64,000 bases of DNA, from assembly GCA_000004985.1 (NCBI GenBank), contig GG738900.1; one strand, 5' to 3'. The translations under genes and the position numbers were made by a program. Positions 23,323 to 32,009 of this stretch are shown here, one piece after another (the stretch's first letter is position 1; each line of letters begins with the position of its first letter). The notes beneath the pieces were generated by a model that worked only from the letters and a program-made list of their open reading frames with translations, was not told where the DNA came from and did not search any database. Source of the stretch: Naegleria gruberi. Taxonomy: Eukaryota.

Positions 23323-24219
23323 ATGACAACAATAGACTTTCAACAAATGCTTCTCGAGGAAAGAAAAAAAGCTCGAGAAGAATTAAAACAGAAAAAGGCT
23401 TGCTCTATTTTTCAGGATCGGAATGATCATCAATTAAATGATTTATCAAAATATAAATTATCAAAGGCTCCAATGGAAGCTATCTATTATATTCCTGATT
23501 ATATCACTGAGGAAGAGGAGAAAAAATGTGTGGAAGCTATTTATAAGGATGATACAAGTTCTTCATATGTTGGAGAGAAGAAGGGATGGGTTTGTTTGAG
23601 TAAGAGAAGGCTCAAGAATTTGGGAGGCATTCCTCATCCAAATGGCATGTATAAGGAGAGTTTGCCAAAGTATATCACTGATTTTAGGAAATTATTACAT
23701 CAGAAGGGACATTCAATTGACAAGTTTATTGAAATACCTTCTGATCAAGTTAAAAACCATGACTATAATCAAGTATTACTGAATGAGTACGAGTGTGGAA
23801 AGGGAATTAGACCACACAAGGATGGTCCACTCTATAGTGATATTGCTCTTGTTCTTTCATTGAAGACTACTTCACTAATTGATTTTTATACTGAAAAACC
23901 TACAGAAGAAAATGAGGAATCTGTACTCGCAAGTGTATTTTTGGAGCCTAGATCACTTTTGATTTTCTGTAAAGAAGCCTATACGGATTATTTTCATGGT
24001 GTTAGAGATGTGGATCAGGATGTAATTAATCCAGAGAAATGCATAAATATGCAGACTGCTAATGTTTCTGCTGGACAAATAATTCCAAGAAACACAACAA
24101 GACTTTCCCTAACTATTAGAAATGTGAAAACTGTAATAACTGAAAAAAACTATACTAGCTCAGAATCTCAGGAAATTGAAAGAAGAAGATCATGGTGGCA
24201 GTCTGCTATTGACAATTAA
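23323..24219 (+). CDS. ALKBH6: AlkB homolog 6-type 2OG-Fe(II) dioxygenase
   Basis: Single exon, 298 aa. [22 protein letters not shown] versus human [43 protein letters not shown] versus [51 protein letters not shown] versus [39 protein letters not shown]… and RLSLTIRNV versus RVSLTIRRV. Confidence 0.85.
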   Translation: [298 protein letters not shown]

Positions 24220-25633: not shown

Positions 25634-26809
25634 TTGGCAAGCGAAAAAATTGTAAAAATAGAAAAAAAAATGACTCGACTTGATGTGCAGTTTTGTAAGG
25701 GATTTGTTCAGACTAATGTTCAGAACGTTTATTGTACAGATGTTGGTGGAAAGGGATTGAAGAATAATAATGATCGATTTATTTTACAGTTTAATCAATA
25801 TTATCAGAAAGGTTTGATGGTGAAAAATCAGGAGAAGGGAATTCCGATGAGATATTTTGAAATATTTATTCAGCATGTTTCTGAGAAAAAGCCAATATTT
25901 GCTATTGGATTGGCAAAACCTAATTATGATAGAGGAATGGTTGGTTGGTATGATGAATCGATTGGATATCATGCTGATGATGGATATGTTTTTCATAATG
26001 TTGGAAATCAACATAATACTGAGAATTTGATTGGATTGTATTCTTTTGGAGATAGTGTTGGAGTTTTGTTAATTGGTTCTAAAGCATATTTTACAAAGAA
26101 TGGAGTAGCTAATACCAAAGCTTTTGAGCTGAAGAATTATGCTCATGAACAATATTTACCAACTTTGTCTTCTTCAGATTCTGACACTACCATCAAGGTT
26201 TTAAGTCCAAGTGAATTCAAGTTCAATATTGACAAGTTCATTAAAGAAGATTTGAAACTCGAATTAATAGAGAATGAGACACCTCAAAGAAGTGTAAATG
26301 ATTCTGCTAATGACATGCTGAATCATTGTGATGGATTGAAAAAGTTAATTCTAGATGTGATAGAACAACAATCAGTGAATGATTCTCTCCAAAAGCAAAA
26401 AGATACTGAAATTCAAAAATTGAAAATTGAAATTACAGAGCTACAATCCTCTAACGAAAAACTGAAACAACAACATGAAATAACCTTAAAAGAGAATGAA
26501 AAATTGAGAGATGTAAAGACAAGACTTGCACTCAATCAACAAGATATCAATAATTTAAGTCTGGAACAATTGAAAGAGTTGTCACGTATTCTCCTAGATA
26601 CTCAAAACACAATCCATAGTAAGGAGAAAGACTTGCTAGATGTTGAGCTACTCTGTGTGGTTTGTCAAGATAAGAGAAAGAATACCTTGTTCTTACCTTG
26701 TAAACATCTTTGTGTTTGCGCTGAATGTGCTGAGAGTGTCAAATCTACTGGAAAACAATGTCCAGTTTGTAGAACTGTTATATCTGATAGCATACAAACA
26801 CATCTCTAA
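25634..26809 (+). CDS. SPRY + coiled-coil + C-terminal C3HC4 RING E3 ubiquitin-ligase-like protein
   Basis: The tracked start is TTG at 25634; the first ATG is at 25670 (MTRLDVQF…). SPRY: WYDESIGYHADDGYVFHNVG…GDSVGVLLIGSKAYFTKNGV. Coiled coil from about 220 to 330 aa. RING: CVVCQDKRKNTLFLPCKHLCVCAECAESVKSTGKQCPVCRTVI. Confidence 0.8.
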   Translation: MASEKIVKIEKKMTRLDVQFCKGFVQTNVQNVYCTDVGGKGLKNNNDRFILQFNQYYQKGLMVKNQEKGIPMRYFEIFIQHVSEKKPIFAIGLAKPNYDRGMVGWYDESIGYHADDGYVFHNVGNQHNTENLIGLYSFGDSVGVLLIGSKAYFTKNGVANTKAFELKNYAHEQYLPTLSSSDSDTTIKVLSPSEFKFNIDKFIKEDLKLELIENETPQRSVNDSANDMLNHCDGLKKLILDVIEQQSVNDSLQKQKDTEIQKLKIEITELQSSNEKLKQQHEITLKENEKLRDVKTRLALNQQDINNLSLEQLKELSRILLDTQNTIHSKEKDLLDVELLCVVCQDKRKNTLFLPCKHLCVCAECAESVKSTGKQCPVCRTVISDSIQTHL

Positions 26810-26869: not shown

Positions 26870-29239
26870 TTATTTATGCTTGATGTAGTATTGATCACTT
26901 TCATCGAATGCTTTGAAAATTGTATGTAATGGTTGGCCGGTAACAAGGAGGGAAGAAAGTCCATTTTCATTTCTTTCAGCTTGGAAAGCTTCATGTTGAT
27001 ACATTAAAATATTGAAAACTGGTGTGTTGCAGTTGGATTGAACTGGTGAGGCTCTCATGAATTGATTGTAAATAGCCAACATGTTCATTACAACTTCAAC
27101 ATTTCCACCAACAATTCCAGGATTAAGAAGCATACTATTTAGAGGTGTTTGATGTTTAGAAAGGGTATTAAGTGGATAAGGAGCTGATTTGTTATAGTAG
27201 AATGATCCATTGACTTCATCAATAGTGATGGAGCATTGAGCAAGCTTTTGTTGAGCCCACTTGGATGAACCAATAGTGGTTGGCTCTGAACCAAAGAAGA
27301 GCTTGTCAGTACTTTCACATACATCACCATCACATTCATCAAAGGTAGAAAGATATTCGAAAGGATTCTTATTAAACTTGATATCAAATAGATCAGTCAT
27401 TATAACTCTCTTTGGTAAAAGACTGAGGCCTTTAGTTGATTCTCTTTGAGCTTGAAGAAGGAAGTTTTCATAAATGAAGAATCTCTCATCATTGGTTGAT
27501 CTCTCACCCAATTGAACGAGTTCAAATCTTACATTATATGAAGTTAACTTGTTGAAACCACACTTGGTGTAAAGTTTGGCATCGTCATAGAAAACCACAG
27601 CTCTAAGATTATGTTTGTGAACCGATTCGTACCATTCTCTCATTGGCTCAAAACAAGAGTCACCATATTGTTCATCTCTTTCTGGATGACCCTTTGTAAC
27701 AAAGTAAGTGGTAAAAATAACATCGTCTGTTACTTGATTATTGGAAAAGTGATAGTATTTCAAGTACCAATCAACAAATTTACGAACACCATCTTCGAGT
27801 TTGGTCTTTGGTTGGAAATTGAGTAATTCTTGACTGTGTGTAATGTCAGCAAAGGTAATGGTCATATCAGTTGGTGGTTTCTTTACATGATTAATCTTGG
27901 CCTTCTTATCGAGAGCCTTTTCAATATACTTGATCATATCAGTAACCTTCTCAGGAGTATGGTTACCTAAATTGAAAACATCATGAACAGCTCTTCCTTC
28001 TTCTCTTTTAACACGATCTCCATAATTCATAGAATTGATAATACCATTAACAATATCATCAATATAGGTAAAATCTCTCATTAACTCTTTTCCTTCGAGA
28101 GTGTAAAGAGTAATTGGCTTACCCTTAACAATTTGATCAACCCAACTGAAAAGAGCCATATCTGGTCTTCCATAAGGGCCATAAACAGTAAAGAATCTCA
28201 ATCCAATAACTGGAATACCGTAAAGGTAGTTATAAGTTTCAGCAAATAATTCTTGGGATATCTTGGAGGCGCTATATACATTGGTAGGTTTGTTAATGTT
28301 CATTTGTTCATGGAATGCAGATGGATCAAATTCTTGAATGTTTCCATAAACGCTTGAACTGGAGGCATAGGCAAAAACTGGAGGATTAGTTTTTTGGTAT
28401 TTAACACTAGTTTCCAACAATTCTATTTGACAGAGAATGTTATTTCTAATGTAGGTTTGGGGATTTTTAAGGGAATATCTTACACCAGCTTGGGCAGCAA
28501 GATGGAGAACATGTGTAAAGGTGTATTTCTCGAAAATTTCACTCAAAATTGAAGTATTGCATACATCTCCCTCAATGACTTGAAAATCAATGAATGGCTT
28601 AATGTCTGCTTCTTCTTTTCTCAAAATTGTACTCGCTTGTTCAATCAAATTTTGATTGATTTCTCTAACAGTCTTTTCCAATTGTTTCTTTCTCATGTAT
28701 TTCAAGTCAGTTGAGTAGTAGTCATTGAAATTATCAAGACCAATCATGACACTACGTTCAACATTATTCAATGCCAAATCAATTTGTTCAATATTGCCCT
28801 TTGTTTCATTGACAAGAGTTGCCATAAAATTGTTCCAATAGGCAAACTCTTCCTTTGCAAGCTTTTCAGCAAGATGAAAGCCAATAAATCCAGCACTTCC
28901 AGTAACTAGAACTTTACGAGAATGAGAAGATTGGGAAAGACCAACCGTATTATCAGATTCTCCTGATGATGTCATATTGGTGGAAGCACTTCCACTAACA
29001 ATAGAACCATCAACAGAAGCAGCAACACTTGCAACAGAAAGTCCGGAAGCAGTATTGCTGTTAGAAGTAGTGGAGGCAACAACTACTTCGGAGTGTGCAT
29101 TACCAGCACACATCATCAAGACAATGGCAAACATCATCATGATTGTCATCATCTTCCATGATGATGAGAACTTTAACAGAATGGTACTCTTAGAGTAATA
29201 ATAGTGTCTATGAGACATTTTACGATATGTAATGAGCAA
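26870..29239 (-). CDS. Secretory-pathway UDP-glucuronate 4-epimerase fused to a C-terminal GT77-like nucleotide-sugar transferase domain
   Basis: The tracked ORF is 789 aa. The likely start is the ATG near 29152 (MMTIMMMFAIVLMMCAGNAHS|EVV, signal-peptide-like). Epimerase: KVLVTGSAGFIGFHLAEKLAK, VMIGLDNFNDYYS, YASSSSVYG, YSASK. RFFTVYGPYGRPDMALFSW is the GAE/CapI hallmark (compare RFFTVYGPWGRPDMAYF). C-terminal ~300 aa: …VFYDDAKLY…RVIMTDLFDIKFNKNPFEY…, a DxD-type nucleotide-diphospho-sugar-transferase-like fold. A 96-nt in-frame element at 28752..28847 sits between the GxxGxxG helix and strand beta2; see findings. Confidence 0.8.
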   Translation of the reverse strand: MLITYRKMSHRHYYYSKSTILLKFSSSWKMMTIMMMFAIVLMMCAGNAHSEVVVASTTSNSNTASGLSVASVAASVDGSIVSGSASTNMTSSGESDNTVGLSQSSHSRKVLVTGSAGFIGFHLAEKLAKEEFAYWNNFMATLVNETKGNIEQIDLALNNVERSVMIGLDNFNDYYSTDLKYMRKKQLEKTVREINQNLIEQASTILRKEEADIKPFIDFQVIEGDVCNTSILSEIFEKYTFTHVLHLAAQAGVRYSLKNPQTYIRNNILCQIELLETSVKYQKTNPPVFAYASSSSVYGNIQEFDPSAFHEQMNINKPTNVYSASKISQELFAETYNYLYGIPVIGLRFFTVYGPYGRPDMALFSWVDQIVKGKPITLYTLEGKELMRDFTYIDDIVNGIINSMNYGDRVKREEGRAVHDVFNLGNHTPEKVTDMIKYIEKALDKKAKINHVKKPPTDMTITFADITHSQELLNFQPKTKLEDGVRKFVDWYLKYYHFSNNQVTDDVIFTTYFVTKGHPERDEQYGDSCFEPMREWYESVHKHNLRAVVFYDDAKLYTKCGFNKLTSYNVRFELVQLGERSTNDERFFIYENFLLQAQRESTKGLSLLPKRVIMTDLFDIKFNKNPFEYLSTFDECDGDVCESTDKLFFGSEPTTIGSSKWAQQKLAQCSITIDEVNGSFYYNKSAPYPLNTLSKHQTPLNSMLLNPGIVGGNVEVVMNMLAIYNQFMRASPVQSNCNTPVFNILMYQHEAFQAERNENGLSSLLVTGQPLHTIFKAFDESDQYYIKHK

Positions 29240-29750: not shown

Positions 29751-32009
29751 TTAACTGCCATATCGAATAAGGCCAACTAGTGAAGGGCCTTGTTCTGGCT
29801 TGTGCTCATCCCGTACTTCAAATCCATGTTTTTTGAGAAAATCAACCACAGAGGAGTAACCTTCATCCTTGTAAACAAAAGTATAAATTGGAAGAGAAGC
29901 CTCATCAGACGATTTGATTATTGGCATGAGCACTTCATTGCCAAGTCCTTTCTTTCTCAATTTAGGTTTAACAGCAAGTGCCAATAGTGTCCAGTGAGGT
30001 TTATGAGGCGAGGAAATGAGAGAGTTGTGATATTCTTCCATACTCTCAGCACATTTGATACATCTGTACATGGATTTAAGTTTTCTTAATAATAGGTACG
30101 TTAATGAAATTGAAGCTTATGGGATTACTTACAGACTCTTGGGTGATTTTAAAATTCCAAGCTTTAACATTCTCCATAAACCAATACCTTTCGTATTGTA
30201 GGGATCTTGCCATATAGAAATAGCTTGAATTTCCTTGTCCTGATTGGCGAGTGAGTAGTGAATATTGACATATACTCTGCCATATTTGATTCCATATTTT
30301 AGTAATAGAGTACAGAGAAATAAGAGAGCATCTTCTGCAATCTCACTTATTGATTCCACATTAAAAATATGCTTTAAAAGAGAATTCCAATTCAGAAAGG
30401 GTGAATTATTAGTAGTGGGAATGATCAATGCTGGTGAATCCTCAGCAGTAGATGTGCTTGTGGATTTTGAGCTTCCAGTACCAGTACTGTTAGTCAATTT
30501 GGCTTCAATGAATAGCTTCTGGAGTGGATTGTTATCAGAATGTTTGACAACATTAACCAAAAATTTGGCAGCCTCCTCAATTTGACCAGGATGAATCTCT
30601 GAAACTACATTTTTACCTCGCTTATTTCTATCTCTTCTTGTTCGTGGTTTGTGAATTTTTACATAATTATAGACCTGAGTTTTGAATATGTTATTGTCGA
30701 ACAATCCATTTCCAATCTTGGCAATGTCTGATGATGCACGCGATTTGGTACTGTTACTCCTAGATTTTCTTGATTTTGTGCCTGCTGCGTTTGAGTTGGT
30801 TATTTCCTTTCCAATACTTGTTGATGTAACAAAGTTTTTAAACCATTCCTCTTCCCAAATCTTGAAAAATTCCTTGCAACACAATGCAACATGATACATA
30901 TCTTCCAATGAGAGGAAGGCAAATACATTTAACTTTAAAGAAGTTGGATTGAGAGTATTGAAACTTTGTAATGAGAGTTTGATATTATCTTCCCTAAAGT
31001 TTTCCATGATTCGATCCAAAATTTTAATCGTTTTTGCAGCACTAGGTCTGTCCCTTGGTTGATAGCTCAGTAATAGTTTGGTCAAATTGAATAAACCCCT
31101 AGAATATCCCATAGTATCGACACAGTAATGTTCAATCTCATTGAAAAAGTTTGGATTTTTCTGCAATTCCATTGACACCATCATTTGTTTTCCTTCAGCC
31201 ATCATTTGAAGAAGAATCCTATCCAAGTTTATGATTAATATTGAAGATGAATAGACAACCTACACTCCAAATGAATACATATCCGTTGACTGATCATAAA
31301 ATTCCTTGTTTAACATTTCATAGCTCATAAAATCTATTGTTCCACACTGGGTTTTAGCCATTGATAGTGTATCCAAAACTCTACTAATTCCAAAATCTCC
31401 AATCTTTAAAACTCCTGATGCGTCTATTAGAATATTTTGTGGTTTTCTAGAATTAAATTTAAAAGAATAAAAAAATTAATTTTAAATTAATTCGAAACTT
31501 ACAAATCTCGATCTATAAAAAGTATAATAAATTCCAATAATAATAGTAATAGAAATACATACGTATTATATTATTTTCATGCAAATAATTCAATCCTTCA
31601 GCAATTTGAATTGCATAATTTACTATATCCTTTTCCTTCATCTTTCTCTCCTTTTTACAAGTTGTAGTAATGAGCTTTTGCAAATCTCCTCCAGGACAAT
31701 ATTCAATACACAAACAGACATATAAAGTCTCTGCCTTTTTACTGTATTGATGAAGAAAGGCTCCCAAATACTTTATCACATTTCTATGAGAAAGATTCCG
31801 AAGTTTTTGAGCTTCATTCAAATGAATATTGGCCTCATCCAATGAAGACCATTCCATTCTCTTGATTGCTATTTGTTCTTCTGTTTTCTTGTGTTCAGCC
31901 AAAACGACTTGTCTAACATAAGTTATGATGATTAGCCATTTGATATTAATAAAACAACTTACCCTTCCGAACCTCTCCCTAAAATCTTTATAACGTAGTA
32001 CTGTTCCAT
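29751..32009 (-). CDS. NEK-like Ser/Thr protein kinase fused to F-box-like and GNAT acetyltransferase domains, 6 exons including a 10-nt microexon (~669 aa)
   Basis: Exons (minus strand) 31963..32009, 31563..31912, 31503..31512, 31264..31446, 30133..31218 and 29751..30084. Introns of 50, 50, 56, 45 and 48 nt, with donors GTAAGT, GTATGT, GTAAGT, GTAGGT and GTAAGT. The spliced product reads MEQYYVIKILGRGSEG|QVVLAEHKKTEEQIAIKR…YLHENNII|HRDL|KPQNILIDASGVLKIGDFGISRV…CGTIDFMSYEM…DMYSFGV|ILLQMM…SYQPRDRPSA…. An F-box-like stretch follows (NVFAFLSLEDMYHVALCCKEFFKIWEEEW), then a GNAT fold (…WTLLALAVKPKLRKKGLGNEVL…IYTFVYKD…). The last intron overlaps the TAA at the end of the ORF at 30129 and continues in frame into the ORF at 29751..30071. 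Confidence 0.7.
31503..31512 (-). other. 10-nt microexon (ATCGAGATTT) of the kinase gene, supplying H-R-D of the HRDLKPQN catalytic loop
   Basis: Lies between the GTATGT…TATAG intron (31513..31562) and the GTAAGT…TCTAG intron (31447..31502). Phases 1 to 2 are consistent with the flanking exons. Without it the HRDLKP motif and the downstream frame are lost. Confidence 0.7.

Follow-up and report, generated by a model that had tools for sequence, protein, structure and literature searches.

A Naegleria gruberi gene that joins a protein kinase, an F-box-like segment, and a GNAT domain in one polypeptide

The window analyzed here is a stretch of 64,000 nucleotides (nt) from Naegleria gruberi contig GG738900.1 (assembly GCA_000004985.1). 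Its minus strand carries, at 29751..32009, a gene of six exons that encodes a protein kinase domain, an F-box-like segment, and a C-terminal GNAT (GCN5-related N-acetyltransferase) domain in a single chain of 669 amino acids (aa). An initial annotation, made from the sequence alone, had proposed to assemble this gene from three minus-strand open reading frames (ORFs) at 31513..31902, 30129..31226, and 29751..30071, all of which are present in the ORF list of the window. The features of the locus, all on the minus strand, are as follows.

29751..32009, minus strand: whole coding region of NAEGRDRAFT_72831 (XP_002672146.1, D2VUY8), 6 exons and 5 introns, 669 aa; splice assembly and exact public match.
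31963..32009, minus strand: exon 1, 47 nt, from Met1 through the second base of the Gly16 codon, with the glycine-rich loop (G-loop) GRGSEG; splice assembly.
31913..31962, minus strand: intron 1, 50 nt, GTAAGT..TAG; splice assembly.
31563..31912, minus strand: exon 2, 350 nt, with the VAIK-type Lys33 (IAIK), the alphaC Glu49, the hinge, and one base of the His133 codon; splice assembly and alignment.
31513..31562, minus strand: intron 2, 50 nt, GTATGT..TAG; splice assembly, position same in N. fowleri.
31503..31512, minus strand: exon 3, the 10-nt microexon ATCGAGATTT, which completes H-R-D-L of the catalytic loop; splice assembly.
31447..31502, minus strand: intron 3, 56 nt, GTAAGT..TAG; splice assembly.
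31264..31446, minus strand: exon 4, 183 nt, with KPQN, DFG (153-155), the activation loop, S-Y-E in place of APE, and subdomain IX to SFG(V); splice assembly.
31219..31263, minus strand: intron 4, 45 nt, GTAGGT..TAG; splice assembly, position same in N. fowleri.
30133..31218, minus strand: exon 5, 1086 nt, with the kinase C-lobe, the F-box, a linker rich in Ser and basic residues, and the N-terminal half of the GNAT; splice assembly and structure model.
30085..30132, minus strand: intron 5, 48 nt, GTAAGT..AAG, between GNAT beta3 and beta4; splice assembly and structure model.
29751..30084, minus strand: exon 6, 334 nt including the TAA stop; splice assembly.
31029..31997, minus strand: protein kinase domain, residues 5-260, spanning introns 1-4; Pfam Pkinase.
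30819..30956, minus strand: F-box-like segment, residues ~285-330; sub-threshold Pfam F-box-like match, family profile, and model.
30938-30840, minus strand: F-box core LKLNVFAFLSLEDMYHVALCCKEFFKIWEEEWF, residues 291-323, within the F-box-like segment.
30618..30818, minus strand: linker, residues 331-397, disordered and Ser/Lys/Arg-rich, then a conserved basic helix.
29754..30617, minus strand: GNAT (puromycin-N-acetyltransferase-like) domain, residues 398-669, interrupted by intron 5; profile, AlphaFold2 (AF2), and Foldseek.
29957-29940, minus strand: GNAT motif A RKKGLG, residues 602-607; alignment.

Joining the six exons produced a 2010-nt coding sequence with zero internal stops and a product of 669 aa, the length given in the initial annotation. 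The five introns measure 50, 50, 56, 45, and 48 nt, all are of the GT..AG type, and their donors are, in order, GTAAGT, GTATGT, GTAAGT, GTAGGT, and GTAAGT. The microexon ATCGAGATTT supplies the remainder of the His codon, the Arg and Asp codons, and two bases of the Leu codon in the catalytic loop HRDLKPQN, and reading of the sequence indicates that its omission shifts the frame. The Pfam Pkinase model covers the spliced product as one unbroken stretch that crosses four of the five junctions. Such a continuous match is impossible unless the first four junctions are correctly placed, and it lies far beyond chance.

The TAA that closes the middle ORF (30131-30129) sits inside the intron 5 donor AGTCT/GTAAGT, and direct reading of the sequence bears out this point of the initial annotation as well. 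The lengths of introns 4 and 5 are multiples of three, and each brings an in-frame stop at once (GTG TAG and CTG TAA, respectively), so retention of either one would truncate the protein. Retention of intron 5 would leave a protein of 559 aa that has the kinase, the F-box, and half of the GNAT; the donor of intron 5 in Naegleria fowleri also continues CTG TAA. An alternative acceptor for intron 5 (gtacAG, 30064/30063), located in frame 21 nt downstream and shortening the protein by 7 aa, was rejected, as the alignment with N. fowleri is gapless there. The resulting 662-aa variant is absent from the protein collection by exact look-up, and the public model differs from it.

An exact look-up matched the product letter for letter (669/669 aa) to EFC39402.1, also recorded as XP_002672146.1 and UniProt D2VUY8, at locus NAEGRDRAFT_72831. 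The gene is therefore not a new discovery, as the exact model was already public and uncharacterized, and the initial annotation had recreated from raw sequence an existing gene model. D2VUY8 is labeled "predicted protein," and its UniRef name is "non-specific serine/threonine protein kinase." The possibility of a gene still lacking annotation in N. gruberi was rejected by the same look-up, which found the public 669-aa protein clustered under a 358-aa fragment (P0001). This ENA metagenome fragment (sample ERZ929261, contig k127_232496) is 100% identical to the N. gruberi protein, and homology searches display only the fragment because it represents the protein's cluster. N. gruberi-like environmental DNA is evidently present in metagenome ERZ929261. 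The annotated orthologues, FDP41_001909 of N. fowleri, C9374_001058 of Naegleria lovaniensis, and ABK040_000587 of Willaertia magna, are all unnamed or "hypothetical," and no mention of NAEGRDRAFT_72831 or of the orthologue locus tags and accessions was found in the searchable literature.

The fusion is real and not a modeling artifact; there is one gene and one polypeptide. Our own DNA-based model of the N. fowleri locus (L001) contains nine exons and encodes 708 aa, equal to the annotated FDP41_001909, and the two proteins can be aligned over their entire length (55% identity, 71% positives) in the same domain order as in N. gruberi. The microexon ATCGAGATTT is identical in N. fowleri (L001 9144-9153) and has identical AG/GT flanks, and the counterpart of intron 1 falls in the same Gly codon with a 1-nt shift. 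At the junction before the GNAT exon, the donor AGTCT/GTAAGT and the phase are the same in both species; the intron itself, 107 nt in N. fowleri against 48 in N. gruberi, is not alignable. The fifth junction (KSL/KLK) is supported because N. fowleri shares its donor and phase despite this longer intron.

More distant relatives also carry the three modules in one gene. In P0009 (38% identity), the kinase, F-box, and GNAT modules are encoded by one exon of 748 aa, located on a genomic contig of 35 kb (L013), and the only intron of its gene comes after MDQYYV. Two other relatives have the modules in uninterrupted ORFs, P0005 with 718 aa and P0008 with 720 aa; the P0008 ORF occurs on at least 21 contigs, which come from several samples and measure 2.3-3.2 kb. 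The region matching the junction of exons 5 and 6 is uninterrupted coding sequence in L003, L013, L005, and L007-L012, and conservation in an alignment of 11 sequences extends through all three modules. The order of kinase, F-box-like segment, and GNAT in one polypeptide, as first proposed from the window, is also that of the N. fowleri orthologue. Judged from these comparisons, the three-module protein represents an orthologous family across Heterolobosea, with members in N. fowleri, N. lovaniensis, W. magna, and several environmental relatives. Homology searches found no full-architecture counterpart outside Heterolobosea and environmental contigs.

A few observations concern individual members of this family. 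HRDLKPQN is uninterrupted in the distant relatives on L003 (translated frame) and L013 (the single 748-aa exon), and therefore the two introns that flank the microexon, 10 nt from each other, are either specific to the Naegleria lineage or lost elsewhere. The N. lovaniensis model (P0004, C9374_001058) diverges from the family beyond ...PIFTILYHHQ, and the rest of it is unrelated sequence (alignment columns ~1040-1094), and the Willaertia model (P0007, ABK040_000587) ends at 555 aa within a low-complexity loop. Both 3' ends look like gene-model errors and not like true losses of the GNAT C terminus.

The N-terminal module was recognized by Pfam Pkinase (PF00069) at 187.7 bits (cutoff, 31.7; E value, 3.5e-55) over model positions 2-257 of 263. 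The G-loop GRGSEG (11-16), K33, E49, H133-R134-D135, N140, D153-F154-G155, D191, and R254 are invariant in 11 homologues. The domain is a Ser/Thr protein kinase with every catalytic residue present and is predicted to be active. The initial annotation had called it NEK-like; the kinase assignment stands, and NEK-like and Aurora-like are equally supported, as the best solved kinase domains tie among NEK1 (8.7e-30), NEK2 (1.3e-29), and Aurora A (1.5e-29). These align over nearly the whole domain, and the Naegleria catalytic loop HRDLKPQN is of the Ser/Thr type. Kinase matches outside the family in the full-length homology search were mixed and included JAK2, plant kinases, and one NIMA-named protein. 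None of these families is favored, and we would call the domain an unclassified Ser/Thr kinase of the "Other" group and not a NEK. The APE motif takes the form S-[YWF]-E across the whole family (SYE at residues 177-179 in N. gruberi), and an aromatic residue at the Pro position that closes the activation segment is unusual.

The evidence for the second module comes from the family. Pfam F-box-like was found at E values of 0.01 or below in 7 of 11 family members (best, 5.2e-7), and gathering scores were passed by the homologues P0159 (33.7 bits), P0148 (29.4), P0144 (F-box, 27.5), and P0136 (37.6). A profile of the 11 segments (residues ~275-335), searched against the PDB at E values up to 10, retrieved 19 chains, all 19 of them F-box proteins, with Skp2 as the best match (3.6e-4) across the three-helix core. 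The full-length model places three helices in this segment, at 288-296, 301-310, and 312-329. On the family profile and the model together, residues ~285-330 are almost certainly a three-helix F-box. The linker that follows has a predicted local distance difference test (pLDDT) score below 50 at 340-371 and is helical at 372-395 in the full-length model. Its basic helix KIHKPRTRRDRNKRGK (384-399) immediately precedes GNAT beta1, and K376, K384, R392, G398, and K399 are near-invariant in the 11-sequence alignment.

Structure predictions for the third module were examined for the N. fowleri GNAT domain and for the full-length N. gruberi protein through a public entry (P0134). The AF2 pLDDT is 70-90 in the core of the N. 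fowleri domain and averages 70.7 over the whole N. gruberi protein. Both models display the topology beta1-alpha1-alpha2-beta2-beta3-[helical insert]-beta4-alpha3-beta5-alpha4-beta6-beta7, which is the canonical GNAT order plus an insert, and a disordered insert of ~50 residues (425-473) lies between alpha1 and alpha2. A Foldseek search of the PDB placed puromycin N-acetyltransferase (PAC) with acetyl-CoA (7k09) at the top (E value, 3.4e-10; TM score, 0.74 on the target), and the best 50 matches were all GNATs. Similarly, the GNAT family profile matched NAA50 (1.6e-8) and PAC (4.1e-7) in the PDB, nearly all of the 33 matches being GNATs, and Pfam GNAT models were found at E values of 0.01 or below in 6-7 of 11 family members. 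Motif A (Q/R-x-x-G-x-G/A), the pyrophosphate-binding loop after beta4, is present as R602-K-K-G-L-G607, and the orthologue group retains its G-x-G in each of the seven full-length domains (RKKGLG, RNRGLG, QNMGIG, TNNGIG, NNNGIG, TNNGIG, and QNKGLG). These alignments and models make it nearly certain that the C terminus is a GNAT of the PAC type with an intact acetyl-CoA pyrophosphate-binding motif, for which activity is predicted.

The last intron splits this fold, as had been anticipated from the sequence. In the structure model, the GNAT portion of exon 5 provides beta1, alpha1, the disordered insert, alpha2, beta2, and beta3, and exon 6 provides the helical insert, beta4 (HWTLLALAV), motif A, alpha3, beta5, alpha4, beta6, and beta7. 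The junction (Leu559) falls between beta3 (525-534) and beta4 (590-597) of one fold, and according to the model neither exon could alone give a folded GNAT domain.

When a profile of the GNAT domain was searched exhaustively against 1.84 billion representatives, 3182 relatives scored at E values of 1e-3 or below and 531 at 1e-10 or below. Among the matches listed, most are stand-alone proteins of about 200-210 aa, for which NCBIfam offers no specific name and only weak sub-threshold matches of the RimI/ArsN2 type. Sequence comparison indicates that the nearest non-kinase relatives are fused and not stand-alone. Eight proteins from dictyostelids and other contigs have an N-terminal U-box before the GNAT domain (P0143, P0145, P0152, P0167, P0227, P0245, P0251, and P0260), among them PPL_06137 of Heterostelium album (P0152) and SAMD00019534_022340 of Acytostelium subglobosum (P0167). 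Two have an F-box and a GNAT without a kinase (P0136 and P0139), two Arcella intermedia transcripts encode CLU, SPRY, and GNAT (P0200 and P0267), and one bacterial protein joins a PEP-synthase module to a GNAT. Further kinase-F-box-GNAT proteins are P0138, P0144, P0148, and P0149, the last one a paralogue from Willaertia. What this GNAT clade repeatedly joins in amoebae thus appears to be an E3 ubiquitin ligase module, apparently an undescribed pairing. One candidate stand-alone GNAT (P0123) was rejected, being the last exon of the kinase-F-box-GNAT gene on L003; P0124 looked like a stand-alone GNAT homologue.

Comparison with known systems separates what is familiar from what is particular to this protein. 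The Naegleria GNAT domain and PAC (7K09/7K0A) have in common a helical insert between beta3 and beta4, an HW.L beta4, and the Q/R-x-x-G-x-G motif. However, PAC is a free-standing bacterial acetyltransferase of small molecules, whereas the Naegleria domain is the C terminus of a 669-aa eukaryotic signaling protein and differs from PAC in its ~50-aa disordered insert between alpha1 and alpha2 and in the conserved basic helix in front. The dictyostelid U-box proteins (PPL_06137 and SAMD00019534_022340) and the F-box proteins P0136 and P0139 match the family profile at E values of 1e-69 to 1e-17 and have the GNAT C-terminal to the E3 module in all cases, but they have no kinase, most have a U-box instead of an F-box, and they are likewise uncharacterized. 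The F-box family profile aligns with the three-helix core of canonical F-box proteins (Skp2, FBXW7, KDM2A/B, and FBXL3) and with no other PDB proteins. Unlike in those proteins, the Leu-Pro dipeptide is not conserved in the Naegleria segment, the F-box lies mid-protein behind a kinase, and a GNAT, instead of WD40 or leucine-rich repeats (LRR), forms the C terminus; Skp1 binding is putative.

F-box domains and enzymes do occur in one chain, with KDM2A/B and the Fbh1 helicase as precedents. The characterized aminoglycoside resistance enzyme AAC(6')-Ie/APH(2'')-Ia joins a GNAT acetyltransferase and a kinase-fold phosphotransferase in a single chain. In contrast to the Naegleria protein, that enzyme is bacterial, has the reversed domain order, has no F-box, and modifies a small-molecule antibiotic with both halves, so the likeness is at the superfamily level only. 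To our knowledge, neither kind of precedent unites all three modules. Literature searches for kinase/GNAT/F-box or U-box/GNAT architectures gave nothing relevant, and together with the homology searches they turned up no characterized protein with this architecture, in line with the impression recorded in the initial annotation.

Our best explanation of the locus as a whole, with a probability of about 0.8, is one gene for a kinase-F-box-GNAT chain with a candidate role linked to SCF (Skp1-cullin-F-box) ubiquitin ligases. The gene structure and domain content within this explanation are near certain. The layout could be that of an F-box protein with the GNAT as its C-terminal "cargo" domain, to which a kinase would have been added N-terminally in Heterolobosea. 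The F-box would dock the protein to Skp1/cullin, and the GNAT domain would acetylate client proteins or would bind a client or an acyl-CoA-type or small ligand. The kinase may phosphorylate those clients too, or else the Ser-rich linker within the protein, which would link phosphorylation, acetylation, and ubiquitin-dependent turnover on the same targets or on the protein itself. Docking to Skp1/cullin and the GNAT as cargo are suggested because the nearest amoebal GNAT relatives follow U-box or F-box modules, and the F-box is taken seriously mainly because related GNATs in amoebae repeatedly join E3 ligase modules. The coupling of phosphorylation, acetylation, and SCF recruitment in one chain, raised already in the initial annotation, is a reasonable hypothesis in light of the domain content; for the SCF-linked mechanism in particular, we consider the odds to be somewhat unfavorable.

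Several results weigh against this explanation, and the co-occurrence of E3 modules and GNATs is correlative. The F-box-like helices could instead be a structural linker or dimerization element in the one protein, with no recruitment of Skp1 or SCF and no link to ubiquitin. In the N. gruberi protein, Pfam F-box-like (PF12937) scores 16.6 bits, or 21.1 for the isolated segment, against a cutoff of 24.3, and Pfam F-box (PF00646) scores 15.7 bits, or 20.1 isolated, against 20.5. The position of the Leu-Pro dipeptide reads LNP in N. gruberi (L-N-P-T-S-L-K-L), most family members have no Pro, and the dipeptide itself occurs only in N. fowleri (L-P-D-V-L-K-L) among the 11 aligned sequences. The pLDDT of the region is about 60-65, a moderate confidence only, and the best E value of the family profile in the PDB is modest. 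On the other side, the 19 PDB matches are without exception bona fide F-boxes aligned over the whole three-helix core, several homologues exceed the Pfam gathering scores, and the sister architectures place the same GNAT after a U-box, an unrelated E3 module, which would be hard to explain if the arrangement were accidental. We regard a purely structural role as possible but doubtful.

The GNAT domain, in turn, may be catalytically inactive and serve the F-box protein as a ligand or substrate receptor for acetyl-CoA/CoA sensing or client binding, in the manner of WD40 or LRR domains. F-box proteins typically carry a C-terminal substrate recognition domain, and no catalytic base was assignable in the N. 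gruberi GNAT. In the distant relatives P0144 (QKKNIA) and P0149, motif A is degenerate and without G-x-G while the domain is retained, and therefore the GNAT module can lose its cofactor motif in the wider family. However, that motif is kept in every aligned full-length domain of the orthologue group, and the closest solved structure is an active enzyme with acetyl-CoA bound; a receptor without catalysis seems rather unlikely. In the profile check of the 669-aa product that the initial annotation had envisaged, Pkinase was recovered and the F-box and GNAT regions, taken alone, fell below the Pfam gathering scores (for the GNAT region, Acetyltransf_1, 15.2 bits, 17.0 isolated, cutoff 20.7; Acetyltransf_7, 14.6 bits, 16.4 isolated, cutoff 27), formally one of the outcomes it had named as refuting its claim; both assignments were rescued by the family-level evidence.

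The reading in which the fusion is an artifact and there are two products, a kinase-F-box protein that stops with the TAA (30129-30131) and, at 29751-30071, an independent small gene or decayed remnant, draws on a TAA in frame with exon 5 (retention of the 48-nt intron ends the protein after ...SPKSL), on a 106-aa ORF with its own ATG, and on a look-up for an N. gruberi transcript in which the exact 669-aa product was not found on assembled contigs, but it is essentially excluded, since N. fowleri keeps the donor position and phase despite an intron that differs in length and sequence, its protein aligns straight through the junction, the other relatives encode the region without interruption, and exon 5 would be left with an orphan beta1-beta3 and exon 6 with only beta4-beta7.

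The genes around the locus were also inspected. Directly downstream, at 26870-29239 on the minus strand, lies an intron-less ORF of 789 aa with a GDP-mannose-dehydratase/NAD-epimerase domain at residues 191-487 (E value, 1.5e-47) and a C-terminal extension of ~300 residues without a Pfam match; a hydrophobic stretch near its N terminus may be a signal peptide or a membrane anchor. Two plus-strand genes encode a SPRY and C3HC4 RING protein, a putative E3 ligase (25634-26809; RING E value, 5.8e-16), and a 2-oxoglutarate-Fe(II) (2OG-Fe(II)) oxygenase family protein (23323-24219; 1.2e-8). A scan of these two genes gave no sign of a functional tie to the kinase gene. Five intron-less neighboring ORFs exactly match N. 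gruberi RefSeq proteins, including XP_002672141 and XP_002672094-96. A bdelloid rotifer origin, considered in view of the 34% G+C and the introns of ~50 nt, was rejected on the basis of these matches.

All three domain families in the Naegleria protein are textbook families, and the protein does not represent a novel type of element. Literature searches found no description of the conserved combination of kinase, F-box, and GNAT or of the repeated attachment of the GNAT to an F-box or U-box in distantly related amoebae. The case also illustrates the limits of single-sequence Pfam scoring, with two of the three domains invisible in the single protein and evident only when the whole family is considered. 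Domain combinations confined to one lineage are frequent in Naegleria, and the pairing of E3 modules with GNATs is worth attention in protist signaling and ubiquitin biology. A more speculative possibility, which we consider unlikely at present, is that F-box-GNAT, U-box-GNAT, and the heterolobosean kinase-F-box-GNAT proteins make up an unrecognized class of E3-coupled GNAT proteins in amoeboid protists, in which an acetyl-CoA-dependent or -sensing GNAT would be wired to the ubiquitin ligase machinery; the Naegleria chain would then phosphorylate a client, act as writer or reader of an acetylation or acyl-CoA signal, and hand over that client, or itself, to an SCF ligase. Should the F-box bind Skp1 and the GNAT domain be active, the protein would be a compact natural coupling of phosphorylation, acetylation, and ubiquitin-dependent turnover, in a family that includes the pathogen Naegleria fowleri.

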